From positions 1-35,920 of the IMG/VR virus record IMGVR_UViG_3300026831_000002: a stretch of DNA of 35,920 nt; one strand, written 5' to 3'. The stretch comes from a virus (lineage: Duplodnaviria > Caudoviricetes). Numbering within the stretch: position 1 is the first letter of the stretch; every line of letters starts with the position of its first letter. The notes beneath the pieces are model-generated. The model had not been told where the DNA came from. It did not search any database and was given only the letters and a program-made list of their open reading frames with translations. Both the position numbers and the translations under genes were made by a program. Positions 8,536-27,606 of the stretch are shown here, piece by piece.

Positions 8536-8586
8536 TTAACCCTTGAATGCCATCGAGCATCACACACAGAAAGAAGTGAACTCATG
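8536..8586 (+). promoter_or_regulatory. Com-box plus RBS-occluding hairpin of terL
   Basis: TTAACCCTT-GAATGCC-ATC-GAGCATCAC; GAG(CA)TCAC pairs with GTGA(A)CTC covering the SD next to the ATG. Confidence 0.7.
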
Positions 8587-10224
8587 GTATCTGAACAAAC
8601 TAAAAACTTAATAGCTAAACTCAAACAATCAGACCTAACCAAATTTGATAATCTTAATCTCCTATTTGAGATTTGTTTGAATATATTATCCGAAGATCAA
8701 GAACTGGCGTTAAAAACCGCTAAATTTGTGAAACATCATGCTGCTCTGACAGCAAGTAACCCGAAGTTTTTCGAACTGTATAACCGATCTCTTCTATTCT
8801 TGGCTCCGTATTATTTGGATGAATATATTCTGTATATGGAGAAAGACCGGGCTCCAGAAAAGAGATTCTACCTACCAAGGCGAAAAGTATTAAAGACAGT
8901 TGTAGATGATTTGCAAGATTTAGAGGATAGAGAGATTGATTTTTATGGTTTATCTCTCCCTCCACGTGTTGGAAAGTCTACAATTTGTATTTTCTTTCTT
9001 TCATGGGTGATTGGTAAACGTCCCAATAGTCATAATGCAATGGGTGGACATAGTGGAATTTTGGCAAAAGGATTTTATGGAGAGTTGCTCACGCTTATCA
9101 ATTCACCGGATTACCATTTTGCAGAAATATTTCCAACCTCCAAGCTAGAATCAAAGTCAGCGGATGAGTTTACTGTCAACCTGGACAAGCCTGATCGCTT
9201 CGCTTCATTTACCGCCAGAGGTATAGACGGTACATGGACAGGTGCAATAGATATATCAAAAGATGGATATTTATATGTCGACGACCTTGTTCGTGACCGT
9301 ACAGAGTCATTAAGTCCAGTCAGATTAAATAATAGATATCAAGATTACCTAAATGTCATGGTTGACCGTAAAAACGATGGTTCAAGGGAATTAATGGTCG
9401 GCACAAGATGGTCAATACAGGACCCGCTTGGAAAAATTGAAGAAGAAAAGAAAAATAATCCACGATACCGCTTCAGAAAGATTCCGGCTTTAAATGAAAA
9501 GAATGAAAGTAACTTTCAGTATGATTATGGAGTCGGATTCTCAACTAAGTACTTTCTGGATGTTAAAGAACGACTTGATAACAATGAATGGATGGCGAAA
9601 TATCAACAGAAGCCATTTATTAGAGAAGGATTATTGTTTCCTGAGGATGAACTTAAAACATACAATGGAGTATTACCGGAAGTTGGACTTGTTAGAAAAA
9701 TTGCAGTATGTGACGTTGCTTTTGGCGGTGGAGATTCGCTTTCAATGCCATTCGCGTATGAGTACGAAGACGGAAAGGTTTATTTGCCAGATTGGATTTT
9801 TAACCGCGGAGATAAAAAGATTACCGTTCCGATAGTAGCTGGAAAAACTTTGTATCACAAACCAAGTCAAGAACATTTTGAAGCAAACAATGGCGGTGAT
9901 ATGTATGCCAACTTAGTCGATGAGGAATTGAAGAAAGTCGGTTTTAAAACAAATATATCAAGTAGCAAAGCACCTAATACAATTAGTAAGATGGCAAAAA
10001 TAATTCAGTATGCGCCAGATATAAAAGAGAGATTTTACTTTTTGGACGAGCAACATCGCTCTGGAGAATATCAAGAAGGTTTTGAAGAATTAACAATTAC
10101 GGTCCAGGTTGGAAAAAATGAACATGATGATGCTGCTGATTCAATGGCGCAACTTGCAGCGTTTCTTGACGGCGGTTTTTCTGTTAAAACAACAATTATA
10201 GATAGAAGTCAATTGGGAATATAG
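8584..10224 (+). CDS. terL: Terminase large subunit
   Basis: PPRVGKS Walker A, YLYVDD Walker B, GTRW, CDVAFGGGD nuclease motif, HDDAADS. Confidence 0.93.
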   Translation: MVSEQTKNLIAKLKQSDLTKFDNLNLLFEICLNILSEDQELALKTAKFVKHHAALTASNPKFFELYNRSLLFLAPYYLDEYILYMEKDRAPEKRFYLPRRKVLKTVVDDLQDLEDREIDFYGLSLPPRVGKSTICIFFLSWVIGKRPNSHNAMGGHSGILAKGFYGELLTLINSPDYHFAEIFPTSKLESKSADEFTVNLDKPDRFASFTARGIDGTWTGAIDISKDGYLYVDDLVRDRTESLSPVRLNNRYQDYLNVMVDRKNDGSRELMVGTRWSIQDPLGKIEEEKKNNPRYRFRKIPALNEKNESNFQYDYGVGFSTKYFLDVKERLDNNEWMAKYQQKPFIREGLLFPEDELKTYNGVLPEVGLVRKIAVCDVAFGGGDSLSMPFAYEYEDGKVYLPDWIFNRGDKKITVPIVAGKTLYHKPSQEHFEANNGGDMYANLVDEELKKVGFKTNISSSKAPNTISKMAKIIQYAPDIKERFYFLDEQHRSGEYQEGFEELTITVQVGKNEHDDAADSMAQLAAFLDGGFSVKTTIIDRSQLGI

Positions 10225-10234
10225 GAGGTGTTAT

Positions 10235-10669
10235 ATGGTAACGCGTGAAAATTTATCTGATCTTACATATCTGCAACAGGCTATCGAAGACTTACAATCA
10301 AAAATAAAATATCTAGAATCCCATCCTCCGCTTACTCAATACGGAAAGGTTTACGGCTCTGACAGCAATTTTCCTTATACTATCCGTAGTTTTAATATAG
10401 AAGGATACAATGGTTTAAACGAAGATGCATGGTTAAAACGCCGCAGAAAATTAGAAGAAAGTTTGAAAAATAAATTGTGTGAATATGAAAAAAAACGTAT
10501 TGAAATTGAGGAATTTATTAATAATATTCCAGATATGACAACGCGACTTATGTTTTCATACCTGTATGTTAATGGAATGAAGCAAGAAGAAGTTGCTCAA
10601 AAGTTGCATTTTGATAGAAGCACTGTTTCTAAACGAATATCTAGTTATTTTGATTGTATAAAACGGTAG
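10235..10669 (+). CDS. Late transcriptional activator (ArpU/RinA-like, sigma region-4-type HTH)
   Basis: IEEFINNIPD...YLYVNGMKQEEVAQKLHFDRSTVSKRI. Confidence 0.75.
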   Translation: MVTRENLSDLTYLQQAIEDLQSKIKYLESHPPLTQYGKVYGSDSNFPYTIRSFNIEGYNGLNEDAWLKRRRKLEESLKNKLCEYEKKRIEIEEFINNIPDMTTRLMFSYLYVNGMKQEEVAQKLHFDRSTVSKRISSYFDCIKR

Positions 10670-10671
10670 CT

Positions 10672-10704
10672 TTCACCCCATTCACAAAAATATCGTGGTA
10701 CAAT
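10672..10704 (+). promoter_or_regulatory. Probable activator-dependent late promoter
   Basis: Tandem TTCAC (10672, 10681) in place of a -35, plus extended -10 TGGTACAAT (10696-10704), right after the activator gene. Confidence 0.6.
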
Positions 10705-10764
10705 AAGTATAACAAGAAGTGTAAACAAGCACACCTCATTCATTTTATATCTTTCCTTTCGCAG

Positions 10765-10810
10765 AAACAGCCGTCTTATCTGATGATTTGATGGCTGTTT
10801 TATTTTATTT
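10765..10810 (+). terminator. Intrinsic terminator/attenuator in the late leader
   Basis: AAACAGCCGTC...GATGGCTGTTT followed by TATTTTATTT. Confidence 0.75.
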
Positions 10811-10829
10811 CAGAAATTAGGTGAATATT

Positions 10830-11066
10830 ATGCAAAACTATTTTGATTTCAGATGCAAACAATGCAATAAACTACTCGGTCGCGTTACCGGAGATTCGGA
10901 AATAGCCTGTCCGCGTTGCGGTGGCTTAAATCAGCTTAAGTTTGCCAGTAAGGGCATTACTTATAGTCCAAAGCTGAAAAAGCCTCAGAATGGTCAAAGC
11001 ACCGAGTATAAATCACAATTAGATAGAATATCAAAGAGAACTTCTTCCGGTGTTACGTTCCGGTAA
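10830..11066 (+). CDS. com: Com-family zinc-finger regulator (Mu Com-like)
   Basis: FRCKQCNKLL...EIACPRC matches Mu Com as recalled (IRCKNCNKLL...EIRCPRC); ATG 10830 behind AGGTGA. Confidence 0.8.
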   Translation: MQNYFDFRCKQCNKLLGRVTGDSEIACPRCGGLNQLKFASKGITYSPKLKKPQNGQSTEYKSQLDRISKRTSSGVTFR

Positions 11067-11085
11067 GTGGTTCTTTTATTTTGTT
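11033..11085 (+). terminator. Terminator-like hairpin over the com stop
   Basis: AAGAGAACTTCTTCCGG...CCGGTAAGTGGTTCTTTT plus T-rich tail. Confidence 0.5.
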
Positions 11086-11123
11086 ATCAATCGGATGCTT
11101 ATTTACGGCATGTCTGAAAGCAG

Positions 11124-12698
11124 GTGGTTCCACTGGAAGATTATTATAAGGGTCGGGCAAAAATTTATACCGACGAAAAGCAAATAAATTATAAAAATGT
11201 CATATCGGTTCTGAACGATGCCTTAATATATCATCAAAAGAATTCGGAGCAAATCAGGTTTTTACTGAATTATGAAAAAGGTATTCAGCCAATCCTTGAC
11301 CGTACAAAGAATATTCGATCTGATATTAATGAGAAAGTGGCTATCAACAATGCCTCCAAGATCACTGATTTCAAGATTGCATATGAATTCGGTAATCCAA
11401 TTACATACATTCAAAGGTCTAAGAAGCAAGTACCGGAATCTGATTCCGATAAAGACGACACCAGAATAACCGCACTGAATGAAATGCTATTTGAGGAAAG
11501 TAAATCCTCTAAAGATGTTGAACTGGCTCGGTACTTTAAAATTTGTGGCATCGGATACCGAATGATTAAGGCAAAGCCGAAAGTTTACGGTAAATCGGTT
11601 TTTGATATTATCACACTCAACCCAGCAACGACGTTCATCGTATATTCCAATGACATTTATCAACATCCTATGATGGCAGTTACATATTGTCCGCAGAAAG
11701 ACGGTAATACGGTTTATGGATGTTATACAGATGATACTTATTTTGAAATAGATAATGGTACAAAAATAATTAATGGAACTGATATTAAAACCGATCCTAA
11801 ATGGTCTATTACAAATGGTAAAGGCGTAGCAAATATTCCGGCAATTATTCCAATTGTTGAATATGTAAACGACCATGACCGAATGGGATGTTTTGAAAAG
11901 GTTATCCCGATTATTGATGCGATTAATGTTGTTAATTCAGATAGAGTTAATTCAATTGCTCAATCTGTTCAAAATGTAGTATGGATGAATAATTGCGAAC
12001 TTCCAGAAGGAGTAACAAAGCTTTCATCTGATGGCGTATTGCAAACCAAAAGTCCGCAAGGCGTACAAGCAAGCGTCCAATACCTTGACAGCAAAATCGA
12101 TCAGTCAAGTACTCAATCGCTTGATGATGCGCTGATGTCTCAGCTGATGGAAATTGCAGGCGTTCCGCAGCGTCAAGAAAATTCCGGTGGAGGTTCAACT
12201 GGTTCAGCTATGAACTTGTCGAGCGGTTGGCAGTTTGCCGAAACTATGGCCTTGGAAACAGAAAGTATTTTTGAACAGTCAGAACGGCAATCAATCCGAA
12301 TTATGTTGGAGATCATTAAAAAGTCTACTGATATATCAGAAGAGTTTGCAGATATCGTAAATTTGAATATTTCAGATATAATGATACGTTTCAGTCGTAA
12401 CAAGATTTATGACATGGCTACGAAGTGTAATGCGTTGTCGACACTGATAAAAACAGGGGTTGACCCTAAACACGCAATCGAAACCGTTTCATTGTTTACC
12501 AATCCGCAGGCAGTATATACGGATAGTAAGGATTCAATGGAGAAAATTCAAAAATTACTCACTCAACCAAAGCAGACAGCATCAGCCGGAAATAAAGACC
12601 CTGTCAGCAATAGCCTTGACGGCAATGGTTCTAATCCAGATAAAATCTTACCAGATATGTCGGATCAACCGCAGAAATCACCACAAAGTCAAATATGA
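11124..12698 (+). CDS. Portal protein (SPP1 gp6-like); exact start uncertain
   Basis: 524 aa; NNASKITDFKIAYEFGNPITY, IPIVEYVN, GCFEKVIPIIDAIN; position before scaffold and capsid. Confidence 0.9.
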   Translation: MVPLEDYYKGRAKIYTDEKQINYKNVISVLNDALIYHQKNSEQIRFLLNYEKGIQPILDRTKNIRSDINEKVAINNASKITDFKIAYEFGNPITYIQRSKKQVPESDSDKDDTRITALNEMLFEESKSSKDVELARYFKICGIGYRMIKAKPKVYGKSVFDIITLNPATTFIVYSNDIYQHPMMAVTYCPQKDGNTVYGCYTDDTYFEIDNGTKIINGTDIKTDPKWSITNGKGVANIPAIIPIVEYVNDHDRMGCFEKVIPIIDAINVVNSDRVNSIAQSVQNVVWMNNCELPEGVTKLSSDGVLQTKSPQGVQASVQYLDSKIDQSSTQSLDDALMSQLMEIAGVPQRQENSGGGSTGSAMNLSSGWQFAETMALETESIFEQSERQSIRIMLEIIKKSTDISEEFADIVNLNISDIMIRFSRNKIYDMATKCNALSTLIKTGVDPKHAIETVSLFTNPQAVYTDSKDSMEKIQKLLTQPKQTASAGNKDPVSNSLDGNGSNPDKILPDMSDQPQKSPQSQI

Positions 12699-12710
12699 TA
12701 CCAATAAACT

Positions 12711-12745
12711 AGACAGTCGATAAAATTCGGCTGTCTTTTCTTTAT
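12711..12745 (+). terminator. Terminator after portal
   Basis: AGACAGTCGA-TAAAAT-TCGGCTGTCT followed by TTTCTTT. Confidence 0.75.
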
Positions 12746-12824
12746 GTTTTACCGGAGAGAACCGGATAAACGCATTTGAAAATTTAGATTGACAGAGAAG
12801 TCATTAAAACGCAGGAGGTCAACA

Positions 12825-13406
12825 ATGAAAGATTTAAACAAGTCGATTCTACCATATAATTTGCAGTTTTTCGCAGAAAACCCGGAGCCAACACCTGCGC
12901 CGGAGCCAACTCCCGAACCTACTCCAGATCCAACACCTACGCCGGATCCAACTCCTGAACCGCAATTATCAGCAGAAGAACAACTTGCAAAAGTATTGGC
13001 AGAAAACAAGCGACTTAAAGCAGCAACCGACAAGGCTACATCAGAGGCTGCCAACTATAAGAAACAGTATCGTGCAACTCTCACGGAAAAAGAACAGCTT
13101 GATATTGAACGAGCAGAACGCGAGGCGCAGCGTGAAACAAGAATCAAAGAGCTTGAACGCGAAAGTTCAATTAACAAGATGGCAAAGAGTTTTATAGCCA
13201 TGGGATACACCGAAGAAAACGCTGTCAAAGCAAGTGAAGCGCAACTTGATGGTGATTTTGACGAGTTCACACGCATTCAACAGTCTTTCTTGACAGCAAG
13301 GGATAAACAGAAAGAATCCGAGTGGATGAAAAACGCACCTACTCCACCGGCTGGAAACAAAGAAAACATAGAAGACCCGTTTCTTAAAGGGTTTAATTCA
13401 AAATAA
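12825..13406 (+). CDS. Capsid scaffolding protein
   Basis: ATG 12825 behind GGAGG; NLQFFAE motif, Pro/Thr linker, coiled coil, DPFLKGF C-terminus; precedes the capsid gene. Confidence 0.85.
   Translation: MKDLNKSILPYNLQFFAENPEPTPAPEPTPEPTPDPTPTPDPTPEPQLSAEEQLAKVLAENKRLKAATDKATSEAANYKKQYRATLTEKEQLDIERAEREAQRETRIKELERESSINKMAKSFIAMGYTEENAVKASEAQLDGDFDEFTRIQQSFLTARDKQKESEWMKNAPTPPAGNKENIEDPFLKGFNSK
12882..12962 (+). repeat. 12-bp-period Pro-Glu/Asp-Pro-Thr coding repeat
   Basis: Encodes PEPTPAPEPTPEPTPDPTPTPDPTPEP. Confidence 0.85.
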
Positions 13407-13423
13407 TCTAGGAGGATGATTAT

Positions 13424-14479
13424 ATGTCAACAAATTATGCAGAGAAATATAGTTCCAACGTGGACGAGAGATTTACTCTTGGCTCATTTACAAACAGTTT
13501 GGTAAATGGTGAATATGACTGGATCGGTGTTGAAACCGTTAAGGTTTATTCCATTCCTACAGTCGGCATGAACGACTACTCTTTGAGTGGTACAAGCCGT
13601 TACGGTACACCGTCAGAGTTAGGTAACGAAGTACAGGAAATGAAGGTTGCCAAGGACCGTTCCTTTACTTTTACCATTGACCGCAAGTCTTATGACGACA
13701 CTCAGATGACAATGGAAGCTGGCAAAGCGCTCAGCAGACAGCTTAACGAAGTTGTTATCCCAGAAGTTGACGCATATCGTATCGCTGCTCTTGTAGCTGG
13801 ATCAAAAGTAGATCATATCGTTTCCGGTTCTGTTGATAAGACAACTGCTTATGCAGCATTCTTAAGCGTGCAGGAAATTCTTGATGATGCAAAGGTTCCG
13901 ACTGCTGGACGTATCTGTATTTGCAAGTCTAAGTTCCATAATTTAATCAAACAGGACGAAGCCTTCACAAAGAAAGGCGACATGGCAACCACTATCGCGA
14001 TCAATGGTATGGTTGGCGAGGTTGACGGAGTTCCGGTTGTTAAGGTTCCGGCTTCTTACTTCCCTTCAAACGTTGATTTCGTTATTACAAATCCGATCGC
14101 TATGCCTTCGCCTGTTAAGTTACAGGAATACAAAATTCACACTGACGCGCCTGGTATCAGTGGTTGGTTAGTTGAAGGTCGTATCCGTTACGATGCATTC
14201 GTACTGAATGAAAAAGCTGTTGCAATCGGTGTTCATATTGCAAAGACCTTATCATCTATTGCAATCACAACCGCACCGACTAAGACATCTTATACATCTG
14301 GTCAGGCATTTGATCCGGCTGGTATGGTTGTTACCGCTACATACTCTGACAGCACAACAGCCGCTGTAACCGGTTATACCTTCTCTCCTGCTACACTTAC
14401 CGCATCCGGTAATGTAACTATTACATACAAAGAGAATGGTGTTACCAAGACTGCTACACAGGCCGTTACTGTAGCGTAA
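13424..14479 (+). CDS. Major capsid protein with in-frame C-terminal Ig-like domain
   Basis: Position and capsid-like motifs (DRSFTFTID, VIPEVDAY, GWLVEGRIRYDAFVL); tail LSSIAITTAPTKTSY...FDPAGMVVTATYSD is a bacterial Ig-like domain. Confidence 0.9.
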   Translation: MSTNYAEKYSSNVDERFTLGSFTNSLVNGEYDWIGVETVKVYSIPTVGMNDYSLSGTSRYGTPSELGNEVQEMKVAKDRSFTFTIDRKSYDDTQMTMEAGKALSRQLNEVVIPEVDAYRIAALVAGSKVDHIVSGSVDKTTAYAAFLSVQEILDDAKVPTAGRICICKSKFHNLIKQDEAFTKKGDMATTIAINGMVGEVDGVPVVKVPASYFPSNVDFVITNPIAMPSPVKLQEYKIHTDAPGISGWLVEGRIRYDAFVLNEKAVAIGVHIAKTLSSIAITTAPTKTSYTSGQAFDPAGMVVTATYSDSTTAAVTGYTFSPATLTASGNVTITYKENGVTKTATQAVTVA

Positions 14480-14493
14480 TTAAATAAATAATC

Positions 14494-14531
14494 GTCGCGT
14501 CGGCTTCAATCGTGAGGTCGGCGCGACCTTT
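14494..14531 (+). terminator. Long GC-rich hairpin after the capsid gene
   Basis: GTCGCGTCGGCTTCA-ATCG-TGAGGTCGGCGCGAC; short U tail. Confidence 0.65.
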
Positions 14532-14549
14532 AGAATATGAGGTGAAATC

Positions 14550-14879
14550 ATGCCAATGTTTATTAAAAATGGTCTTGTGATGGAAGTCAGTGATGTATGT
14601 GCGAACTTATTCTATAAGCAGGGATGGGAGCCATATGTTGAAATTATCACGGAAAACGCAACGATGGACACTCAGCCTGACAGTAAGATTTTTCCCGATA
14701 ATACCGTCAAGGCCGATACCATTTCAGATACGCCAGAAACTACTAAATTAAGCCGCCGGGAAGTCATGAGAATGACAAAGGATGCATTGTCGTCTACAGC
14801 AAAAGAGCGTGGTTATACGATAATCTCTGATAAACGTACCGACATGATTGAAGAATTTTTGAAACAGCAAGGCGAGTAA
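14550..14879 (+). CDS. Hypothetical head-region protein, possible HeH/Rho-N-like C-terminus
   Basis: SD GAGGTG; MTKDALSSTAKERG...KRTDMIEEF. Confidence 0.6.
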   Translation: MPMFIKNGLVMEVSDVCANLFYKQGWEPYVEIITENATMDTQPDSKIFPDNTVKADTISDTPETTKLSRREVMRMTKDALSSTAKERGYTIISDKRTDMIEEFLKQQGE

Positions 14880-14893
14880 CAGGAGGTGTTCTT

Positions 14894-15238: not shown

Positions 15239-15252
15239 AAAGTTGGTGAACG

Positions 15253-16023
15253 ATGAACTGTATCAAGATAGAACTTCCAAGAGAACTCAAAATGATTGAA
15301 CTTCATACGCTTGCTGACTTACATATGGGTGACGCACATTGTGACTATGAAGAGATTCGCCGTCAAGTAAAGGCTATAGAGTCTAATCCTAACGCTTTCG
15401 CTATTTTAAACGGAGATTTAATGAATAATGCAACTAAAACATCAGTATCCGACTGTTACGCAGAACAATTAACACCTATGCAACAGATAAGTAGAACTGT
15501 TGAGGTTTTAAATCCTATTAAAGATAAGATTCTTGCTATGGAAAGTGGAAATCACGAAAAGAGAACTTACAACAAAGAGGGTATAGACTTATCTGAAATA
15601 GTCGCAAGAGAACTTGGAATCGCTGATAAATATTCCAAGTCGGGAAATTTAATTTTTGTGCGTTTTGGTTGGGATAAGCAGCATCAAAGAAAACAGTGTT
15701 ATGTTGTTTATGCGAATCATGGATCTGGTGGAGGCCGTAAAGAGGGTGCAAAGGCAATTCGTCTTGCAGACATGGCTTCTATAGTAGATGCAGATGTGTA
15801 TATTCACTCTCACACTCATTTGCCTATGATAATGAAACAGGGCTTTTACCGGGTGAGTCCTTCTAATAGCTGTATATGTAATGTGACAAAGTTATTCGTC
15901 AATACCTCTTCTGCCTTGGATTATGGCGGTTACGGAGAAGTATACGAGTTTAAACCAAATAGTAAAGACACGCCAATTATTTACCTTGATGGCACAAGAA
16001 AGAAAGCCGATGCAAGGTTGTAA
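15253..16023 (+). CDS. Calcineurin-like metallophosphoesterase
   Basis: DLH.GD, GDL, GNHE, H, HTH motif set. Confidence 0.88.
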   Translation: MNCIKIELPRELKMIELHTLADLHMGDAHCDYEEIRRQVKAIESNPNAFAILNGDLMNNATKTSVSDCYAEQLTPMQQISRTVEVLNPIKDKILAMESGNHEKRTYNKEGIDLSEIVARELGIADKYSKSGNLIFVRFGWDKQHQRKQCYVVYANHGSGGGRKEGAKAIRLADMASIVDADVYIHSHTHLPMIMKQGFYRVSPSNSCICNVTKLFVNTSSALDYGGYGEVYEFKPNSKDTPIIYLDGTRKKADARL

Positions 16024-16042
16024 ATCTTAAGGAGGAACGTCT

Positions 16043-16639
16043 ATGTTAAAAGATAGTGGAGAACGTCGAGAATTTGAAAGTGGGGCTGTCAGAGATATAT
16101 CAGAGGGAAAAGGCAGATGCGATTTACTTCCGCTTGAAGCCATTGGAACTCATTTAGAGGATAACATTTTAATATCCATAGACAAATACATAAGAAGCGG
16201 TGATATAGAATTTTTATGGTTTGCAATTGAGCAGTTTTCAACCAATCATTTTACTGATTTATATACCGGTCTTCTAGAAGTATCTAAACAGTATCAAGAA
16301 GGTGCGAAAAAATATGCAGACAGGAACTGGGAAAAAGGAATGCCGGTTCACTGTTACATTGACAGCGGTGTTCGTCATTATCTGAAAGTACTTAGAGGCG
16401 ATACTGATGAACCGCACGACAGAGCGTTTATTTGGAATATGCTTGGTGCAATATGGACCCATACAAATAAACCGGAATTGATTGATTTACCATTTGTTGA
16501 TAATTCAAAATCAAACTCATTTGTTCATGATAAAAAGTTTTCTGACGATGCATTACCGCGACTTTCTCATTTCGAATTTGGCACACACAACCACGGCTCT
16601 GTTCTTTCGATTAATCACAAGGCGGTGCCTAATGAATGA
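16043..16639 (+). CDS. dATP/dGTP diphosphohydrolase-domain protein (DUF5664-like)
   Basis: GAVRD..GKGRCDLLP; GAKKYADRNWEKG...DSGVRH...DEPH. Confidence 0.8.
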   Translation: MLKDSGERREFESGAVRDISEGKGRCDLLPLEAIGTHLEDNILISIDKYIRSGDIEFLWFAIEQFSTNHFTDLYTGLLEVSKQYQEGAKKYADRNWEKGMPVHCYIDSGVRHYLKVLRGDTDEPHDRAFIWNMLGAIWTHTNKPELIDLPFVDNSKSNSFVHDKKFSDDALPRLSHFEFGTHNHGSVLSINHKAVPNE

Positions 16640-16958
16640 TTATAAAATATATGCTGTGGATTTTGATGGTACTCTTGCGAAAACAAAATATCCAGTGATT
16701 ATCAAGCCAATCAAGCGCATTATACGCCTCGTGAAGCGATTAAAACGCAAAGGCAATAAGATAATCCTCTGGACTTGTAGAAGCGGTGAGAATCTCGATA
16801 ATGCTGTCAAGTGGTGTACTGAACAAGGTATAGTGTTTGATGCAGTCAACGAGAATTTACCGGAAGAAATTGCACGATGGAATACTGACCCTCGCAAAAT
16901 CGGAGCTGACTATTTCATTGATGATAAAAACAAATTTATATTTGGACTAATACGATAA
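16632..16958 (+). CDS. Minimal HAD-superfamily hydrolase
   Basis: AVDFDGTL, LWTCR, K..ADYFIDDK; start moved to ATG 16632, overlapping the previous gene's end. Confidence 0.85.
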   Translation: MNDYKIYAVDFDGTLAKTKYPVIIKPIKRIIRLVKRLKRKGNKIILWTCRSGENLDNAVKWCTEQGIVFDAVNENLPEEIARWNTDPRKIGADYFIDDKNKFIFGLIR

Positions 16959-17510: not shown

Positions 17511-17885
17511 ATGCGTTCACTTGAACGAAATAAAATCCTCTTTTATTATGCCCTATACAAAGGTATGGCGCCCGTTTTAGACGAGAACGGCAACGACACG
17601 GGTCAAACTGCTCCTTCATACGAAAATCCTGTAAAATTCAGAGCCCGGGTATCACCGAATAAAGGCGAAGCGAACACAGAGGCATTTGGTCTGACAGCAG
17701 ATTACGATCGGGTGATTTCAACTACCGATACTCTTCCACTGACTGAAACAAGTGTGTTATGGATTGATACTCTTCCGGTGCTGAATGAAGATGGTTCAAC
17801 CGCAACACCAAATGATTACAAGGTAACTAAGGTTGCACCGGATTTGAACCAGCATCAATATGCTATCAAGAAGGTGGTGAAATAA
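17511..17885 (+). CDS. Head closure/stopper-like protein
   Basis: Size, position and motifs (G..NTEAFG...DY, DYKVTKV). Confidence 0.7.
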   Translation: MRSLERNKILFYYALYKGMAPVLDENGNDTGQTAPSYENPVKFRARVSPNKGEANTEAFGLTADYDRVISTTDTLPLTETSVLWIDTLPVLNEDGSTATPNDYKVTKVAPDLNQHQYAIKKVVK

Positions 17886-18894: not shown

Positions 18895-18905
18895 GTGGTG
18901 ATACC

Positions 18906-19304: not shown

Positions 19305-19319
19305 TATAACAAAAAACTA

Positions 19320-19373
19320 TTAACCCCGAGAGCCTCCGAGTTCCACATATAAAATAAGGAGGCTATTTTTATG
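19320..19373 (+). promoter_or_regulatory. Com-box plus RBS-occluding hairpin of the tail tube gene
   Basis: TTAACCCC-GAGAGCC-TCC-GAGTTCCAC; AGCCTCC (19331-19337) is complementary to GGAGGCT (19358-19364). Confidence 0.72.
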
Positions 19374-19784
19374 GCAGGAGAAATCAGTTCATATGGAGTT
19401 CACTTAATGACTTCAACAGACGGGACAGCATACACAAAACTTGTTGACATTAAGGACTTCCCAGACTTAGGCGGTGCACCGGAGGCATTAGATATCACAA
19501 CTTTATCTGATGCAATGACAAGGAGCATCAATGGTATTCAGCAGTTAAAACCGTTCGAGTTTACAGCTAACTATACCAAAACCGATTACACGGCATTAAA
19601 AGCAAAAGAAGGAACAACAACCAAATTTGCTCTCTATTTTGGTAGTGCCGGTGATGGCGCAGATGGTAAATTCGGTTGGGAAGGTCAGCTTTCCGTATGG
19701 CCAGTTGGTGGAAAGGTCAACTCCGCACTTGAAATGAAAATTTCTATTTCCGCATCTACGGCTATCACACAGATCACGGCGTAG
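19371..19784 (+). CDS. Major tail (tube) protein
   Basis: PDLGGAPEALDITTLSD...EFTANY motif; position. Confidence 0.88.
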   Translation: MAGEISSYGVHLMTSTDGTAYTKLVDIKDFPDLGGAPEALDITTLSDAMTRSINGIQQLKPFEFTANYTKTDYTALKAKEGTTTKFALYFGSAGDGADGKFGWEGQLSVWPVGGKVNSALEMKISISASTAITQITA

Positions 19785-19793
19785 TTCTAAATC

Positions 19794-19830: not shown

Positions 19831-19868
19831 GAAAACAAAATTTCAAATTATCTTAGGAGGATAAAAAC

Positions 19869-20617: not shown

Positions 20618-20624
20618 TCAAGCC

Positions 20625-20673
20625 GAGAACCCTATGAGTTCCACTTTAACATAGAAAAGTGGTGAATGTCATG
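20625..20673 (+). promoter_or_regulatory. Com-box plus RBS-occluding hairpin of the tape measure gene
   Basis: GAGAACC-CTAT-GAGTTCCAC; CCACTTT (20641-20647) is complementary to AAAGTGG (20656-20662). Confidence 0.7.
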
Positions 20674-23600
20674 GGAATGGAAGTTGATCGTCTTGAAATT
20701 CAGGTACAAGCCGAAGCATCAAAAGCGGCTGCGCAACTTGACAAGTTAATATCGAAACTTGGGAACGTATCATCTGCCTTGACATCAGTCAACACAAGTG
20801 GATTGCGTAATTTTGCATCTGGGGTTAATCAGCTATCTTCTGCTATGGAAAAAATGAGCGGAGTAAAAACCACAGATTTTAATAGAGTCACAAAGGGTAT
20901 TGAAAAATTAAGTACGATTAACGAATCGGCTTTATATAAATCGGCTAACGGAATTAGAAATTTTGCTAATTCATTGAATGGTATTAGTTCAGTTTCGGAT
21001 GATGCTGTCAAGATAGGTGAAATAGCTAATAATATTTCAAAGCTTGGCGGTGCAAAGGTTGAAAAGGTTGTAACTACTCTTCCACAGTTATCAATAGCTT
21101 TCAAAGAGTTTATGACTACGCTCTCAACCGCTCCGAATGTTTCAGAGAACGTCATTAGAATGACTAATGCTATGTCTAGCTTGGCTTCTAATGGCTCCAA
21201 GTTTAGCAGTACAGTGAATGGCTTATCTCGTGCCGCTAAAACGCTTACACGGTCAAATAACGAGGCCACTACATCTACTAATTTATTCGGCATTTCTCAC
21301 AGGAATGCAATCTCTCCTGTATCATCATTGACATCACAGGTAAATAAACTTGTTGGTGCATATTTCACACTGAGATATGTGCTTGGCGGCATTACTGGTT
21401 CTATTAATAAGTCCATGGACTTCAATGAGACTATCAACCTATTCCAGACTTCCTATAAAAAAATAGGTGAAGAAGCCGCTGTCAAGAATGGTATGGATTG
21501 GGGAAGTAAATCCGCTGATGCATATGCAAAAGCATTCATTGACCGTGCTCAAACATTTAACGATAAACTGACACAAGCTTTAAGCCTTGACCCGAATACC
21601 ATGATGAATTACCAAGCTGTTTTTGCTCAGATATCAAGTGCTATGGGATTGACAGCAAACACAGCTGAAAACATTTCGGAATCTTTTACCATGTTAGGTA
21701 ACGATATTGCATCATTATGGAATATCAATACAGCTGATGCAATGCAGAAATTACAAGCCGGATTAACAGGACAAGTTCGCCCTCTCCGTGAATTAGGTGT
21801 TGATATTACCCAAGCAACCCTACAGTTGACAGCATATAAATACGGAATCAAAGACTCCGTCAAGGATATGAGCCAGGCTGAAAAGGTTCAGTTGAGATGG
21901 TTAACCATCATGGACCAGTCTTCTGTTGCGTTTGGAGATATGGCAAAAACAATCAACTCTCCTGCTAACCAGTTGAGAGTTTTAAAACAGCAATGGGAGA
22001 ATTTGTCCCGTTCCATTGGCAATGTATTCATGCCAATTGTTACTACGGTTCTTCCATATATAAACGCAGTAGTTATAGCTTTACGTAACATGATTGATAC
22101 TTTGGCTACGGCTATGGGTTATGAACTACCTGATTACACCGATAGCAATATTTATACTGATGTTACGGGAAATATTAATGATGTTACTGACGCTACCGAT
22201 AGTGCTACAAAGGCAAATGAAAAGTATAAAAAATCCATTATGGGATTTGATGAATTAAATATTCTTACGGATAACGGTTCGAAATCCAAGTCTAGCACTA
22301 CCAATACCGGCGGTGGAAACCCTGTTCTTGATGATGCCATTGGGAAAAAGACCGATTCTTATATTGACAAATGGAACGATCAGATTGCGGAAATGAAAAA
22401 TAAAGCAGAGGATTTAGCTGCTATTATCCAACCAAAAATTGAAAAATTTGTTGACTTTTTAGGGCAAATTTCTCCACTTCTCGAAGGAATAGGTATTGCT
22501 TTTGCTGCTTATGAAATCATTACATGGTTTTCTAAGCTTGCAGATAAAATAGGTTTATTGTCCATGACTCCAGCTGGTGTAATTGCTATAGCTATAGGGG
22601 CATTAGCGGTTTTAGTTTTGGCTATAAAAAAACATAACGACGACTTAGTTAAAAGCGATTTAGCAAAAAGATTCGGAGATATAACTCTTTCGCTTCAAGA
22701 TATGAAGGATATAGCGGATGATTTAACTTCATCTGATTATACTGCAAAAATAGATGTCTATGTAACTGAAAAAGCTAAACTTGAAGATATGAAAAAGGCT
22801 ATTCAGACAGATATCAATACGTTAGAAAAATTAGGTTGGAAAGTTTCAGTTGGACTTAAGCTGACTAAAGAAGAACAATCTACATATTCATCAACAATTA
22901 AAAAGTTTATTTCTGATACAGAAGATTACATTGACCAGCAAAATTATGTAATTGATTTGGCTATTAATGCTGTTATCCAAGACGACGAAAAATTCAACAA
23001 AGAAATGACATCGCTTGTTGATGAGTATTTCAACGGATCCAAGGATAAAATGGAGAGACTTGGTAAAAGATTACGAAATACCATGGACAACGCCCTTGCT
23101 GATGGTGTAATAGATGCAACTGAGCAAAAGACCATTAATAATTTAATCAAGGAAATGAACGAGGTTACAAGCCAAATATCCGACGCTCAATTTCAGGCAA
23201 AATTGCAGATGATAACCGTTGACGGTGAATTGACTGCAGATAGTTTTAAAGGATTAACAAAACAGATTCAAGGCGCTATCGACAATAAGGTAAAATCAGA
23301 GGGTGAAGCTTACCAGACTGCATTAGTAGGAATTAACGTAGCGTATAAGGCTAAGATGGACGATGCTAAAAATGCATCAGAAAAAGCTAAATTACAACAA
23401 CAATGGGATGCAGATGTTAAAGAACTTGGTGAACAATTTTCTCAAACAAAAGCAACAATTACTTTAAAGGGAATGACATTTTCACTTGGTACACTTACCA
23501 AGAATTATCAATCCGAATTAAAAAAAGCAATCCCAGGGTTATCAAGTATAACCGTTGATACTATTAGTCCAATGTTGTACGAATCATTAAAAGGTTTAGA

Positions 23601-24948
23601 CTCTTCAACCGCAATGAATCAGGTTGTTTTTGACATGATGACCAACTATCAGACGGCGTTATCAAATAGCGGAATGAGTGCTGCATCAAAAGAAGGATTG
23701 CAGCAAATGCTTGATGCATTAAAGCCATCTACTAAGCAGTTACAGAAAATTTATGATGATGCTCTCAAAGCCGGAACTCAGGTTCCAGATGGAGTAACTG
23801 AGGCATTAACGAATGAAGCAAATCTCGGTGCTATTTCTGGAGATATGGATGCGATGGCGTTTTTAATGGGTCAAAAGCTTTCTACTGATCCTAAGTTTTT
23901 GGAATTGTTATCAAAAAGCAAAGATGCCGGGGTAAAACTTAACGGGCATCTAATAGAGGGATTGAAAAGCAAAATACCTGATTTAAAAATACAAGGTGAG
24001 AAATTAGTTTTTAATGTTCAAAATGCTGTTGATAATGCTTCTTCATCAACAGAAACCCAAACAAAATTATCTGCATCTGGTAAAAATATTGTTGATGGAG
24101 TAAATAAAGGAATAACGAAAAACAAACCATCTTCTGACTCTACAATAAAGAAATGGGCGCAAGGTATAAACGGTATTTTTGATGCCACGGCTTCGTCAAG
24201 TACTTATAAGGGGTATGGAAAAAACATTGTTGATGGGTTAAACAATGGCGTTAAGGATAATCAGAATAAATCTCAAAGTCCAATCGAAACATGGGCTAAC
24301 AGTATTGCCGATTGGTTTAAGGGAGTTTTTGGAATACACTCACCTTCCACTGTTGCGCATGGTTGGGGTGGAAATATTGTTAGTGGATTAGTTAATGGAA
24401 TTCAAGATAAATGGACTAACGGATTAAAGAGTTTTCAGAAATGGTTATCCGGCATTCCTGGAGATATCGCCGATGGTATTGGCAGTTTATACAGCATAGG
24501 TAAGGATTTAATTGGTAGTTTTATTGATGGATTTAAATCGATTTCATTGCCAAAATTAGATATCGATCTTGGATCAAAAACTGTAAATATCCTTGGTAAA
24601 GATATAAAAGTTCCATCGCTTGATATAAAGTTACGTGCAGTTGGTGGTTTACCTGATATGGGTGAAATGTTCGTTGCTCGTGAAGCAGGTCCAGAGTTAG
24701 TTGGACGAATAGGTCGCAGTAATGCTGTTGTGAATAACGACCAAATTGTGCAGTCAGTGAGTTCCGGTGTTGCTAATGCGGTAGCTGAAACAATGATTCC
24801 TATATTGATGTCAAACGGAAATTCAAGTGGTGGTAATACAACTGTGAGAGTTCCAATTTATCTTGGAAAAGAGCAACTGGCAGAGGCAGTTCTTGACGGC
24901 ATAAACAAACGAAACAGAAGGTTCCAAACTTCTGTAAGTTACATATAG
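20671..24948 (+). CDS. Tape measure protein
   Basis: ~1425 aa helical Ala/Ser-rich protein; FGIHSPS and AREAGPELVG motifs; start moved to ATG 20671. Confidence 0.93.
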   Translation: MGMEVDRLEIQVQAEASKAAAQLDKLISKLGNVSSALTSVNTSGLRNFASGVNQLSSAMEKMSGVKTTDFNRVTKGIEKLSTINESALYKSANGIRNFANSLNGISSVSDDAVKIGEIANNISKLGGAKVEKVVTTLPQLSIAFKEFMTTLSTAPNVSENVIRMTNAMSSLASNGSKFSSTVNGLSRAAKTLTRSNNEATTSTNLFGISHRNAISPVSSLTSQVNKLVGAYFTLRYVLGGITGSINKSMDFNETINLFQTSYKKIGEEAAVKNGMDWGSKSADAYAKAFIDRAQTFNDKLTQALSLDPNTMMNYQAVFAQISSAMGLTANTAENISESFTMLGNDIASLWNINTADAMQKLQAGLTGQVRPLRELGVDITQATLQLTAYKYGIKDSVKDMSQAEKVQLRWLTIMDQSSVAFGDMAKTINSPANQLRVLKQQWENLSRSIGNVFMPIVTTVLPYINAVVIALRNMIDTLATAMGYELPDYTDSNIYTDVTGNINDVTDATDSATKANEKYKKSIMGFDELNILTDNGSKSKSSTTNTGGGNPVLDDAIGKKTDSYIDKWNDQIAEMKNKAEDLAAIIQPKIEKFVDFLGQISPLLEGIGIAFAAYEIITWFSKLADKIGLLSMTPAGVIAIAIGALAVLVLAIKKHNDDLVKSDLAKRFGDITLSLQDMKDIADDLTSSDYTAKIDVYVTEKAKLEDMKKAIQTDINTLEKLGWKVSVGLKLTKEEQSTYSSTIKKFISDTEDYIDQQNYVIDLAINAVIQDDEKFNKEMTSLVDEYFNGSKDKMERLGKRLRNTMDNALADGVIDATEQKTINNLIKEMNEVTSQISDAQFQAKLQMITVDGELTADSFKGLTKQIQGAIDNKVKSEGEAYQTALVGINVAYKAKMDDAKNASEKAKLQQQWDADVKELGEQFSQTKATITLKGMTFSLGTLTKNYQSELKKAIPGLSSITVDTISPMLYESLKGLDSSTAMNQVVFDMMTNYQTALSNSGMSAASKEGLQQMLDALKPSTKQLQKIYDDALKAGTQVPDGVTEALTNEANLGAISGDMDAMAFLMGQKLSTDPKFLELLSKSKDAGVKLNGHLIEGLKSKIPDLKIQGEKLVFNVQNAVDNASSSTETQTKLSASGKNIVDGVNKGITKNKPSSDSTIKKWAQGINGIFDATASSSTYKGYGKNIVDGLNNGVKDNQNKSQSPIETWANSIADWFKGVFGIHSPSTVAHGWGGNIVSGLVNGIQDKWTNGLKSFQKWLSGIPGDIADGIGSLYSIGKDLIGSFIDGFKSISLPKLDIDLGSKTVNILGKDIKVPSLDIKLRAVGGLPDMGEMFVAREAGPELVGRIGRSNAVVNNDQIVQSVSSGVANAVAETMIPILMSNGNSSGGNTTVRVPIYLGKEQLAEAVLDGINKRNRRFQTSVSYI

Positions 24949-24965
24949 GAAGGAGGGTCTTATAT

Positions 24966-25337
24966 ATGGCATTGTTAAAAATAAATGGAACAGCAATTAA
25001 AGACCCTTCTTCTCATTCATGGGGAATATCAGATGAATCCAGTGAGGAAAGCGGACGTTCCACTAATGACGGAAAAATGAATAAAGATGTAGTGGCACAA
25101 AAGATAAAACTTTCACTTTCATGGAATAATCCAACCGGAGAAGAAGCGTCAAGCATTTTGAAAGCTGTAAATTATACAACTGTTGGTTCAATGTTTTCAG
25201 TTACATATCTTGACACTATGGAAAATGCATACTTAACCAAAACTTTTTACGTCGGTGATAGATCTGCCCCTATGAAGTACAGCAATATCAGAGGCACAGT
25301 ATATTCAACATTATCATTCGATATTATCGAACAGTAA
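24966..25337 (+). CDS. Distal tail protein-like
   Basis: Follows the tape measure; SGRSTNDGKM, TFYVGDRS, FDIIE. Confidence 0.75.
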   Translation: MALLKINGTAIKDPSSHSWGISDESSEESGRSTNDGKMNKDVVAQKIKLSLSWNNPTGEEASSILKAVNYTTVGSMFSVTYLDTMENAYLTKTFYVGDRSAPMKYSNIRGTVYSTLSFDIIEQ

Positions 25338-25351
25338 GAGGGTGATACATA

Positions 25352-27514
25352 ATGGTAAATACATCAACTGAATATCAAAATAAAATATCTGGTGATAGAA
25401 AATTTTATCTGTATGCAGATATCACCCTCTCTGACGGCACGGTTTTGAATTTGGATGATACTGACATCATGCAGGGTGGAATGGAATTTGAAGATGCTGT
25501 CAGTGGAACAGAATACTTTCAGGTTGGCGCGGCAATTATCAATAAAAATACTATCACTCTTAATAACTACAAGGGTAAATTTGATAATTACGATTTCACC
25601 GATGCAACCGTTGTTCCTTATGTTGGGCTGCAGTTATCTTCTACCGTGGAAAAATTAAAGAAGGGTTATTTTACTGTTGACGAACCGAACGCCGTAGGGA
25701 ATATAATAACGCTTGAAAGCCTTGATAATATGGTTAAGTTTGAAAAACCGTTCAAGGATGTAGCATTAATCTTTCCTACTACCGCAGGATTTGTTCTGAC
25801 AGCAATCTGTAATTATTGTGGGGTTGAAATTGCTACACCAGAGTTCACAAATTACGATTTTACAATCCAATCAAGGCCAATTGATGAAGCTATCTCCTGC
25901 TTGGATATGGTTTCGTATATTGCTACGATTGCCGGTTGCTATGCAAGATGTAATATTGATGGTGCATTGGAACTTAAGTGGTACGACTTGACTGTATTTG
26001 AGTGCCAGAACAGTGTTGATGGCGGTTATTTCGACCCTACTACACAGGCCAATTATCAAAGCGGTACTGCAGTTGACGGTGGTAATTTTGTAGATTATAC
26101 AACCGGATCCAGTGTTGACGGCGGTACATTTCTACAGTCAAAGAACGTACATCATTTATTTGATTTTGGTTCATCTCCCACTGTTGCGGTTGACGATGTT
26201 GTTATTACGGGTGTTCAAGTATCAGACAACGCAGAAACTCCAAATACGGTGTTGTTTGGTTCAACTGGATATGTAATAAGCATTACAGGAAATCCACTTG
26301 TACAAAGCCAAACAGACGCGCAGACAATAGCAAATACCGTTGGTGCCAAGATAGTCGGAATGAGGTTCAGACCTTTGACAGCAAGTATTTTGAGTAATCC
26401 AATGATTGAAGCTGGCGACCCGGCTTACGTTTCAGTTAGAACAAGCCGTGGATACAATACATATCAGACATTTATAACCAGTTTGTCGTTTAAGATTAAT
26501 AGTCGCGAATCCATTTCATGCAATGCTGAAACTCCTTCACGAAATAGTTCAACCAGGTATTCAGAAACAACCAAGGCAATTGTTGAGGCAAGAAAAAAAG
26601 CTGAACAAAAACTATCTGATTATGATTTGACGGTACAACAGCTAACTAATTTAATCACCAATGGATTCGGAATATATAAAACCGAAATCAAGGATGATAA
26701 CGGTGGAATTATCTATTATATGCACGACAAACCGTTAATGTCGGATTCAAGTGTTAGATGGTTCATGACCTCCGAAGGAATGATTGAACAGAACCAAGTA
26801 AGCGGTCAATGGGTTACTGTCAGCGGAACTGATAAGCACGGTAATGCGCTTTACAATGTTTTGTATGCAAGAAAAATTAGTGCAGATTATATTCGTACCG
26901 GTAAGATATTCTCTGATGATGGTTCAGTGCTAATTGATATGGCTTATGGGGTTGCTAACTCTGATAATTTGAGTTTCATCGATAATATTCAAAGTGGTTT
27001 TCCTCTCGCGATGCCATTTAATATAGATGATAATGTATCAAAAATTAATAAAGTTTTGCTCAAATATACTCAACAAAATTTTAGAACCTATTCAGACATA
27101 ACGGATTACGCCGGGAGTTCGGTTGTATCAAGTCGAACTGGTGGAGTTGATGTGTCGACTGGATACGCTTTTCCGAGTGATATATCCACTTCATCGGCAG
27201 ATGGAAGTACGGGAACTCATTCACATACCATATATCTATATCATAAACATGCAGGTGGCGGTCATTCGCATGATGTAGATTTACCAGCGCATTCACATAG
27301 TTTAAGCTTTGGCATACAAGAACAGGCAATATCTGATTATAACATTGATATTTATGTCAATGGAACGCAAAGAGCATCAATCTCAGACCAACAAGGTATC
27401 ATTGATTTGACCGCATATATCACGGCGGCCGGATGGCACACAATAGAACTTCGGAGTACAAGCCTTAAACGAGTATCCGCACAGATTAATATTAAATCAT
27501 ATATTAAGAGTTAA
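25352..27514 (+). CDS. Baseplate hub/central tail spike protein
   Basis: Position; NPMIEAGD hub motif; VDGGxF repeats; C-terminal HxH motifs. Confidence 0.75.
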   Translation: MVNTSTEYQNKISGDRKFYLYADITLSDGTVLNLDDTDIMQGGMEFEDAVSGTEYFQVGAAIINKNTITLNNYKGKFDNYDFTDATVVPYVGLQLSSTVEKLKKGYFTVDEPNAVGNIITLESLDNMVKFEKPFKDVALIFPTTAGFVLTAICNYCGVEIATPEFTNYDFTIQSRPIDEAISCLDMVSYIATIAGCYARCNIDGALELKWYDLTVFECQNSVDGGYFDPTTQANYQSGTAVDGGNFVDYTTGSSVDGGTFLQSKNVHHLFDFGSSPTVAVDDVVITGVQVSDNAETPNTVLFGSTGYVISITGNPLVQSQTDAQTIANTVGAKIVGMRFRPLTASILSNPMIEAGDPAYVSVRTSRGYNTYQTFITSLSFKINSRESISCNAETPSRNSSTRYSETTKAIVEARKKAEQKLSDYDLTVQQLTNLITNGFGIYKTEIKDDNGGIIYYMHDKPLMSDSSVRWFMTSEGMIEQNQVSGQWVTVSGTDKHGNALYNVLYARKISADYIRTGKIFSDDGSVLIDMAYGVANSDNLSFIDNIQSGFPLAMPFNIDDNVSKINKVLLKYTQQNFRTYSDITDYAGSSVVSSRTGGVDVSTGYAFPSDISTSSADGSTGTHSHTIYLYHKHAGGGHSHDVDLPAHSHSLSFGIQEQAISDYNIDIYVNGTQRASISDQQGIIDLTAYITAAGWHTIELRSTSLKRVSAQINIKSYIKS

Positions 27515-27551
27515 TGAGATAGCTTAATATGATTTTTACACGAGCAACCAG

Positions 27552-27606
27552 TTAACCTCTGAACGCCTTGAGCGTCAAATTTTTTACAAAAGGAGTTGAT
27601 ATTATG
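27552..27606 (+). promoter_or_regulatory. Com-box plus RBS-occluding hairpin of the tail fibre gene
   Basis: TTAACCTCT-GAACGCC-TT-GAGCGTC; GTCAAATTTTTTT can pair with AAAAGGAGTTGAT (one mismatch, G-U pairs). Confidence 0.62.

Follow-up and report, generated by a model that had tools for sequence, protein, structure and literature searches.

Predicted Com-type RNA hairpins precede terL and three tail-region genes in a com-carrying temperate siphovirus: a candidate translational regulon

Source DNA and gene layout

All analyses were carried out on the IMG/VR virus record IMGVR_UViG_3300026831_000002 (35,920 bp, 36% G+C, CheckV completeness ~62%; referred to as the window), a phage of soil-metagenome origin that encodes a zinc-ribbon protein of the Com family and carries four bipartite boxes, in the leaders of the genes for the large terminase (terL), the tail tube protein, the tape measure protein, and a 283-aa protein. 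Over their overlap, the window showed zero differences from a 44-kb contig belonging to a Mobilitalea sp. genome bin, and likewise from other metagenome contigs. The bin contig (G019 C70, locus L231) ends at window position 17671 and runs 26.5 kb past window position 1, and a loose-pattern scan of this 26.5-kb extension found no further box. No DNA match (megablast) and no Com-protein match (tblastn) was obtained in the INPHARED phage set, and portal scans of genome and metagenome contigs returned identical copies or relatives of ≤45% identity, with none closer.

The gene content, as assigned from family matches, is that of a temperate siphovirus, and the host is a low-GC Firmicute-type organism. 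The first part of the gene order comprises repressor/Cro-like, primase, small-terminase-like, invertase (serine invertase, 4994–5701), HNH, and Macro-domain genes, followed by terL, a DUF1492/sigma-region-4-like regulator, com, portal, scaffold, major head, and adaptor genes, and then by the tail tube, chaperones, tape measure, tail proteins, holin, endolysin, leftward cargo, and integrase. A first-pass annotation, made from the letters of the window alone, had proposed a Com-family protein at 10830–11066 together with the absence of a recognisable mom gene, and both points held: the protein matches PF10122 above the cut-off, and Mom or methyltransferase families were found in 0 of the 47 window open reading frames (ORFs) scanned in this ~62% complete record.

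The Com protein and its gene

The match of the com ORF to PF10122 has an E-value of 3.2e-7 (30 bits in a six-frame search), and the ORF also matches phrog_6417, 'translational regulator'. Its N-terminal cysteines C9, C12, C27, and C30 (CxxC...CxxC) are invariant among the aligned relatives and align with those of phage Mu Com, and the gene is preceded by the Shine-Dalgarno (SD) sequence GGTGA, 5 nt 5' of the ATG. The C-terminal tail ...SKRTSSGVTFR is common to the Com protein of locus L255 and to P0002–P0005, four Com homologues of 68–87% identity on short contigs, and is not present in Mu Com or in 45-aa Com proteins. The window Com belongs to a long subfamily with a C-terminal motif, encoded at 10951–11066 in the window (...RTSSGVTFR) and at 10100–10198 in L255 (...RETSSGVRF). 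A terminator-like hairpin, read from the sequence, lies 5' of com (Table 1) with only ~24 nt between it and the com ATG; it escaped the consensus terminator scan, its loop being longer than 8 nt.

Four bipartite boxes in intergenic leaders

The pattern GARNRCC-N2-4-GAGNNYC gave four matches on the + strand of the window and zero on the − strand, against a mean of 0.04 matches in 300 dinucleotide shuffles, of which 0/300 reached four. These are the strings that the first-pass annotation had listed, at the positions it had given. Single half-sites were not enriched over shuffles. A pattern of the literature type, GARNNCC-N2-3-GAGNNYC, which was not fitted to all four sites, gave three matches against a shuffle mean of 0.07. 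As a natural background, the 4.8-Mb bin contained 21+21 matches to GARNNCC-N2-4-GAGNNYC, with 19+18 for a reversed-pattern control, which corresponds to ~0.16 matches expected per window strand.

Each of the four boxes is located in an intergenic leader, although such leaders amount to just ~5% of the late region, and none lies inside a gene, so that the proposed check for enrichment near starts came out in favour. The boxes end 22, 26, 28, and 27 nt 5' of ATG 8584, 19371, 20671, and 27604, respectively, where ATG 20671 is the corrected start of the tape measure gene and replaces the listed GTG 20659. No target adjoins com: one box lies 2.2 kb upstream of it and the others 8.5, 9.8, and 16.7 kb downstream. 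The hexamer TTAACC, which had been noted before three of the boxes, occurs 13 times on the + strand of the window, and three copies (8536, 19320, 27552) do lie 2–3 nt 5' of a box. Neither a consistent pairing partner nor a consistent promoter geometry was found for TTAACC in the window. The gene behind box 4 had been called a tail fibre gene; the box at 27561 does precede its ATG, and the label proved to be positional only, as the gene has no Pfam or PHROG family match and is flanked by a tail protein (25352–27514) and an appendage-like gene (28859–30283). A box-like string, GAATATCAAAGAGAACTTC, at 11026 in the 3' end of com was rejected as a site, being unable to form the hairpin, and the 3' end of the window com holds no box hairpin.

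Table 1. Boxes, com, and associated genes in the window
Feature	Coordinates	Strand	Sequence or family match	Remarks
TTAACC (8536–8541) and box 1 (8545–8561)	8536..8561	+	box 1 GAATGCCATCGAGCATC	terL leader
TTAACC (19320–19325) and box 2 (19328–19344)	19320..19344	+	box 2 GAGAGCCTCCGAGTTCC	tail tube leader; loop CCUCC is an anti-SD
Box 3	20625..20642	+	GAGAACCCTATGAGTTCC	tape-measure leader; N4 loop; TCAAGCC in place of TTAACC
TTAACC (27552–27557) and box 4 (27561–27576)	27552..27576	+	box 4 GAACGCCTTGAGCGTC	leader of gene 27604–28455
com, 78-aa Com-family zinc ribbon	10830..11066	+	PF10122 (Zn_ribbon_Com), 30.1 bits vs cut-off 22.9	
Terminator-like hairpin 5' of com	10766..10815	+	AAACAGCCGUC...GAUGGCUGUUU and U-rich tail	read from sequence
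Large terminase gene terL	8584..10224	+	phrog_38, E 2.3e-55	predicted target 1
DUF1492/sigma-70 region-4-like regulator	10235..10669	+	PF07374, 24.1 bits; Sigma70_r4_2, weak; phrog_36	between terL and com; candidate late regulator
Major tail (tube) protein gene	19371..19784	+	phrog_158, E 2e-15; Pfam Phage_tail_3, sub-threshold	predicted target 2
Tape measure protein gene	20671..24948	+	phrog_1535, phrog_58, others	predicted target 3
283-aa gene, tail/baseplate region	27604..28455	+	without family	predicted target 4

Match to the Com targets of Mu and of the published selection

The Mu target given in the first-pass annotation was correct: record AF083977 carries GAATGCCTGCGAGCATCC within the 3'-terminal part of com, stopping 4 nt short of the mom SD and 14 nt short of its GTG. 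Box 1 is identical to this site at 14/14 non-loop positions, the differences being confined to the 3-nt loop. According to a report on systematic evolution of ligands by exponential enrichment (SELEX) with the H. sputorum Com zinc finger (Nowacka 2019, PMC6483171), the selected motif is bipartite, with two GAG(N)2CC elements flanking a variable stem of 3–4 bp and a closing pair that is always C-G, the contacts of Com map to the loop CC(N)2-3GAG, and the GA dinucleotide is protected in the footprint. Under these published features (3–4 bp stem, C-G closing pair, CC(N)2-3GAG), boxes 1, 2, and 4 are exact (N3, N3, and N2), and box 3 has N4. Boxes 2 and 3 are GAGNNCC...GAGNNCC exactly, as in the SELEX motif, whereas boxes 1 and 4 begin GAA/GAAC, like Mu and unlike that motif. 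The SELEX motif was defined independently of the window, and the first-pass annotation had arrived at its boxes unaware of the selection. The four boxes are best explained as hairpins in RNA of the kind to which phage Mu Com binds.

A scan of IMG/VR with the exact Mu-type pattern GAATGCC-N3-GAGCATC was set aside. It gave 121 loci, 80 of which were taken with flanks, and a Com ORF lies over the site, as in Mu com-mom, in 21 of the 121; the scan is uninformative for new targets because the total is roughly that expected by chance for 14 fixed bases and flanks cover 80/121.

Hairpin structure and covariation

The four boxes share the form G-A-[NNNC]-C-N2-4-G-A-[GNNN]-C, in which the bracketed arms read AUGC/GCAU, GAGC/GUUC, GAAC/GUUC, and ACGC/GCGU in boxes 1–4. 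The arms vary at three positions and are complementary in all four boxes, with one G·U pair. All four stem positions are thus paired in 4/4 boxes, a property that GARNRCC-N2-4-GAGNNYC does not itself require and that has, by arithmetic, a chance of ~0.1 per site.

A covariance model (CM) was built from a seed of five sites, namely boxes 1 and 2, the Mu site, and sites from loci L018 and L014. The seed boxes scored 27.1 bits (box 1) and 25.9 bits (box 2), and the two boxes outside the seed ranked third and fourth in the window, box 4 at 16.7 bits (E 0.1) and box 3 at 15.5 bits (E 0.2). The fifth-best match (30327–30346, 11.7 bits) was rejected as an ordinary terminator 3' of gene 28859–30283, with no box. 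Across 15 CM matches from 11 sources, 60/60 stem cells were paired, with three of the four stem pairs varying on both sides, and 14 compensatory cells were counted against 3.4±1.8 after shuffling (0/500 shuffles), the signal collapsing in slid-register controls. The hairpin covariation that had been put forward as a check is therefore present in these matches, and the five G·U pairs among them (UG 3, GU 2) argue for an RNA element over a DNA palindrome. A scan of the window at Rfam gathering scores gave 0 matches.

Leader folding and the proposed switch

Leader folds were obtained as minimum-free-energy (MFE) predictions on 75-nt pieces, and each was compared with the same piece in which the box hairpin was enforced. 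For terL (8547..8590), AUGCCAU (8547–8553), GAG, and UCAC are predicted to pair with GUGA, CUC, and AUGGUAU (8576–8590, AUG included), with an MFE of −13.1 kcal/mol versus −6.9 with the box hairpin enforced. In the tube leader (19331..19364), AGCCUCC (19331–19337) pairs with GGAGGCU (19358–19364) and sequesters the SD (−12.5 versus −6.4 kcal/mol), and in the tape-measure leader (20631..20675) CCUAUGA (20631–20637) pairs with UCAUGGG (20669–20675, AUG included) while a second pairing joins CCACUUU (20641–20647) to AAAGUGG (20656–20662, the SD), giving −19.0 versus −9.3 kcal/mol. The fold of the fourth leader pairs GCC/UUG/GUCAA with UUGAU...AUGGC. Over all four leaders, the MFE ranges from −12.5 to −19.0 kcal/mol, and from −6.4 to −9.3 kcal/mol with the Com hairpin enforced; by itself, the Com hairpin is weak, at −1.5 to −3.5 kcal/mol, and it has nucleotides in common with the inhibitory fold. 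Each box had been suggested to pair, by a different sequence, with the SD of its own gene. The four predicted folds bear this out, with the correction that, in 3/4 leaders, not only the SD but also the AUG is predicted to be paired.

When the duplex between each box and its own translation initiation region was ranked among 34 start regions, the ranks were 1 (terL), 3, 2 (tape measure), and 7, and a rank sum as low as 1+3+2+7 has an estimated chance of ~1e-3. The unpaired fraction at −16..+4 was 0.35 in the box leaders versus 0.48 in 33 other leaders (Mann-Whitney U test, p=0.025), in a comparison that used a tape-measure start one base off. Relatives keep the pairing between box and SD with other sequences, such as AGCGCC:GGCGCU in L018 and GAGCGCCA:UGGUGCUC in L210.

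Under the proposed mechanism, each box would, in the absence of Com, have its 5' arm and its loop paired with the SD and/or AUG of its own gene. Com, produced from its gene between terL and portal, would then clamp the small hairpin and hold its CC...GAG loop (which in box 2 contains the anti-SD CCUCC), freeing the SD and AUG as proposed for mom, so that one trans-acting Com would gate four dispersed morphogenesis genes. Activation is likelier than repression because the boxes end 22–28 nt before the start, clear of the ribosome site. The window's own Com is accordingly predicted, from sequence and modelled folds, to bind the four boxes and activate translation of terL, the tube gene, the tape measure gene, and the fourth gene, with a probability that we put at roughly 0.65; the regulon interpretation of the first-pass annotation is to this extent supported, all its proposed computational checks having turned out favourable. 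It had also placed terL upstream of the late promoter, where terL would stay untranslated until Com is made; no promoter could be identified in the window.

Co-occurrence of boxes with com in relatives

Relatives were taken via terL (19 loci), via the tube protein (80 loci), and via a Com alignment (80 kept of 436 relatives), and Com was marked in them by a small hidden Markov model built for this analysis. In 15 loci with Com (224 kb), the strict hairpin box was found 12 times on the gene strand and 0 times on the other, and 83 loci without Com (990 kb) contained none on either strand, contrary to the refuting condition that the motif be as common in com-less phages. With the loop widened to 2–8 nt, the same 83 loci gave six matches on the gene strand and four on the other, versus 78 and two in 77 further Com loci (1.25 Mb).

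In these 77 further loci, a box lies ≤200 nt 5' of the start in 62/71 terL homologues, which makes a Com hairpin a regular part of terminase leaders in this phage group; no paper describing such a hairpin was found among Creative Commons-licensed PMC papers and bioRxiv. Boxes in terL leaders are carried by L018, L210, L212, L215, L257, L261, L270, and a large GAGCACC...GAGUGCC clade, and in Mu and the relatives with short Com proteins a box lies inside the 3' end of com. Tail-tube leaders carry boxes in two other lineages, L014/L021, in which the gene 3' of the box is 40% identical to the window tube protein (E 1e-30), and L255, which shares with the window the order terL, 143-aa ORF, com, portal. 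The relatives' boxes are without TTAACC. Four boxes in one phage are unusual: by the strict pattern, 66 of the 77 further Com loci had zero matches, nine had one, and two had two.

Weighing of the regulon and of alternative explanations

Several observations weigh against a Com-gated regulon of this extent. The covariation count leans towards structure because a structure-aware model selected and aligned the matches, and the counts of co-occurrence are not independent events because the loci with Com fall into few clades. The accessibility difference is modest (n=4), and MFE prediction on 75-nt pieces is crude. The N4 loop of box 3 falls outside the N2-3 of the SELEX report, and boxes 1 and 4 close their second halves with UC where the motif given there has CC. 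The conserved TTAACC flank is unaccounted for by a Com model, and com itself sits behind the terminator-like hairpin at 10766–10815. Among the 80 tube loci, the 37 tube relatives that were read had a box or leader 5' of the tube gene in 0/37 cases, their upstream stop codon sitting within the SD in 37/37, and a strict regular expression across all 80 gave 0 matches at the tube leader; a box is thus no general feature of this tube family. For the boxes of the tape measure and the fourth gene, comparison gives no support, all other copies of the phage being identical.

TTAACC together with the box could instead form DNA-level late promoters or operators read by the DUF1492/sigma-region-4-like regulator, with TTAACC as a −35 element (AAC) of the extracytoplasmic function (ECF) type and GAGCGTC, GAGCATC, or GAGTTCC around −10. 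The position of TTAACC 2–3 nt 5' of three boxes is far above chance, the spacing AAC-N16-CGTC at site 4 resembles ECF-type promoters, the sigma-like gene is located between terL and com, and strand-specificity is as compatible with a promoter as with an RNA element. AAC-N16/17-(CGTC/CATC/TTCC) can be read at the sites; the −10-like tetramers differ among the four (CATC, TTCC, TTCC, CGTC). Sigma-70 promoter and terminator scans of the window stayed at shuffle level, with no promoter placed. A promoter would need no complementarity between spacer and −10 region, whereas the arms covary and use G·U pairs; TTAACC is missing at the relatives' boxes, and in Mu and the short-Com clade the motif lies inside the com coding region. 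The box also tracks com rather than the regulator, since 10 of 11 loci with Com and without DUF1492 (phmmer, partial loci) carry a hairpin box, L196 being the exception. A promoter identity of the boxes is, on this evidence, improbable; in a combined model, TTAACC might belong to a promoter and the box might form the mRNA 5' end. It is likewise unlikely, if somewhat easier to entertain, that Com binds the boxes with antitermination, mRNA stabilisation or processing, or even repression as the outcome. Antitermination is made plausible by short-Com relatives (L018, L019, L189, L014), in which boxes at the com end form the 5' arm of a terminator with covarying arms, so that Com-type hairpins could plausibly control read-through. 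Against these outcomes, none of the four boxes in the window is followed by a hairpin that resembles a terminator and has a U tract, and the partners of the boxes are SD and AUG; a Com bound to a box that ends 22–28 nt before the start codon would leave the ribosome site free, contrary to repression.

Chance or relic similarities, or recombination sites for the serine invertase, are a very remote prospect, for all that the motif is short, that the phage encodes a DNA invertase, and that gin adjoins com-mom in Mu. Four matches stand against 0.04 expected, all four at a near-fixed distance from start codons and with covarying stems, and boxes are missing from com-less relatives. Inversion sites of the hix/gix kind have the form AACC-NN-GGTT; the boxes are direct repeats without such a dyad, and inversion sites are therefore not supported. 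The reading preferred here remains translational activation by Com at the four leaders.

Comparison with known systems and significance

To our knowledge, Com is a textbook mRNA-remodelling activator of translation that is known for a single adjacent cargo gene only. The window resembles Mu com-mom in its PF10122 protein, in a target hairpin with the same conserved letters, in the position of this hairpin, which immediately precedes a structure (a predicted one in the window) occluding the SD or start codon, and in the predicted activation by a structural switch. It differs in having four targets versus one, in targets that are core morphogenesis genes rather than a DNA-modification gene, and in their distance from com, where the Mu target adjoins it, so that Com would act in trans. 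Box and inhibitory structure have nucleotides in common here and merely abut in Mu, and the extra conserved C-terminal tail of Com, TTAACC at three boxes, and a low-GC Firmicute-type host further set the window apart from Mu. The predicted trans-acting arrangement of four targets on core morphogenesis genes is new relative to com-mom.

Re-use of Com homologues for genes other than mom has precedent in the available portions of three reports: com-like genes precede DNA adenine methyltransferases in FluMu, Pnm1, and B3 (PMC3299994) and precede LlpA bacteriocins, tailocin cargo, and a tailocin lysis enzyme in Pseudomonas (PMC6240691, PMC4684702), with candidate Com sites described at the start of the gene that follows com in these com-cargo systems (PMC3299994, PMC6240691, PMC4684702). 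As far as those portions go, each system has one com directly 5' of one cargo, with no terminase, tube, or tape-measure target and no dispersed sites, and, according to the Pseudomonas authors, what Com regulates more broadly 'remains to be explored' (PMC6240691, PMC4684702).

The late gating proposed here resembles that of the activators of Gram-positive phages, and a DUF1492-like gene adjoins com. Such activators, of the RinA/ArpU/LtrC/DUF1492 type, gate late packaging and morphogenesis genes at the DNA level, through one promoter located 5' of terS; unlike them, the window has an RNA-type hairpin at four leaders, which tracks com rather than DUF1492. Control of late genes in tailed phages is usually described as transcriptional, through late activators, sigma factors, and antiterminators.

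If Com gates terL, the tube, the tape measure, and the tail gene, this would be the first Com regulon with multiple targets and the first Com control over core virion genes. It would also give a testable function to the large, mostly unannotated PF10122 family of Firmicute phages, and would offer, for studies of Com specificity, a 17-nt protein-RNA code in four natural versions whose stems covary; the four leaders and the 78-aa protein are small enough for direct electrophoretic mobility shift assays and reporter tests. A broader claim, that Com zinc fingers are widespread trans-acting master regulators of late genes at the RNA level in Firmicutes phages, hundreds of which gate terminase translation (62/71 terL leaders, 436 IMG/VR relatives) with the four-leader regulon extending the code here, is tentative, and we hold it at a little under even odds. 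Were it true, Com would do post-transcriptionally what late sigma factors and activators do in transcription.

Other features of the window and of com-carrying relatives

Directly 5' of the terL leader lies a gene for a Macro-domain protein (7963–8532, + strand; PF01661, E 5.9e-11; phrog_2613), which adjoins an HNH endonuclease gene (7429–7962) and whose product may have a counter-defence or ADP-ribose-processing role. Between the head-tail adaptor and tail genes, 15253–16958 (+ strand) holds non-structural genes, with DNA-repair-exonuclease-like (phrog_7339), pyrophosphohydrolase-like (phrog_18716/801), and phosphoheptose-isomerase-like (phrog_1238) ORFs, and is followed by a 144-nt gap. Between the tail gene 28859–30283 and the holin, two successive terminator-like hairpins occupy 30327–30380 (+ strand; GGAGCC/GGCUCC+U4 and GGCAUCC/GGUGCC+U4), and the holin start is probably further downstream because the listed GTG 30371 falls inside the second hairpin.

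In the short-Com relatives, an intrinsic terminator has as its 5' arm either the box located at the com 3' end or the 3' half of that box, GAGNGCC (L018 5333–5390, L019 3440–3500, L189 4245–4300, L014 ~13700–13790, and L253 2536–2600). The arms of these terminators covary, being AGAGCGCCA/UGGCGCUCU+U5 in L018, GAGCGCCA/UGGUGCUC in L019, AGUGCCA/UGGCACU in L189, and AGUACC/GGUACU in L014, which suggests Com-controlled read-through into head genes. The terL leader of the dominant com clade (L256, L258, L263, and others) contains three GAGNNCC half-sites and a hairpin GCAC/GUGC with a 10-nt loop; its GAGUGCC is sequestered in two alternative ways, by CGUAG/CUACG or by GUGCC/GGCAC, and an SD hairpin AGAGCC/GGCUCU follows, giving the leader a multi-hairpin, attenuator-like appearance.

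A second RNA motif, independent of Com, consists of hairpins of the form N4-AGAGAA-N4' followed by UAAAACGCA/AAUCGCA, and had no Rfam match in the window. It is found at 12752–12765 and 12790–12803 (+ strand) in the window, at L018 5394–5477, L210 6336–6437, and L157 5467–5533, and at many other loci, as arrays of 1–4 tandem copies directly 5' of the SD of the scaffold or head gene after portal or com. Its 4-bp stems covary heavily (CCGG, UGAC, GUGC, GGUG, AGCG, GGAC, and others), and the counts on the gene strand versus the opposite strand were 27 versus 0 in the 15 loci with Com and 52 versus 4 in the 83 loci without. The motif places the scaffold start not at TTG 12789 but slightly downstream, after ...acgcaggagg.

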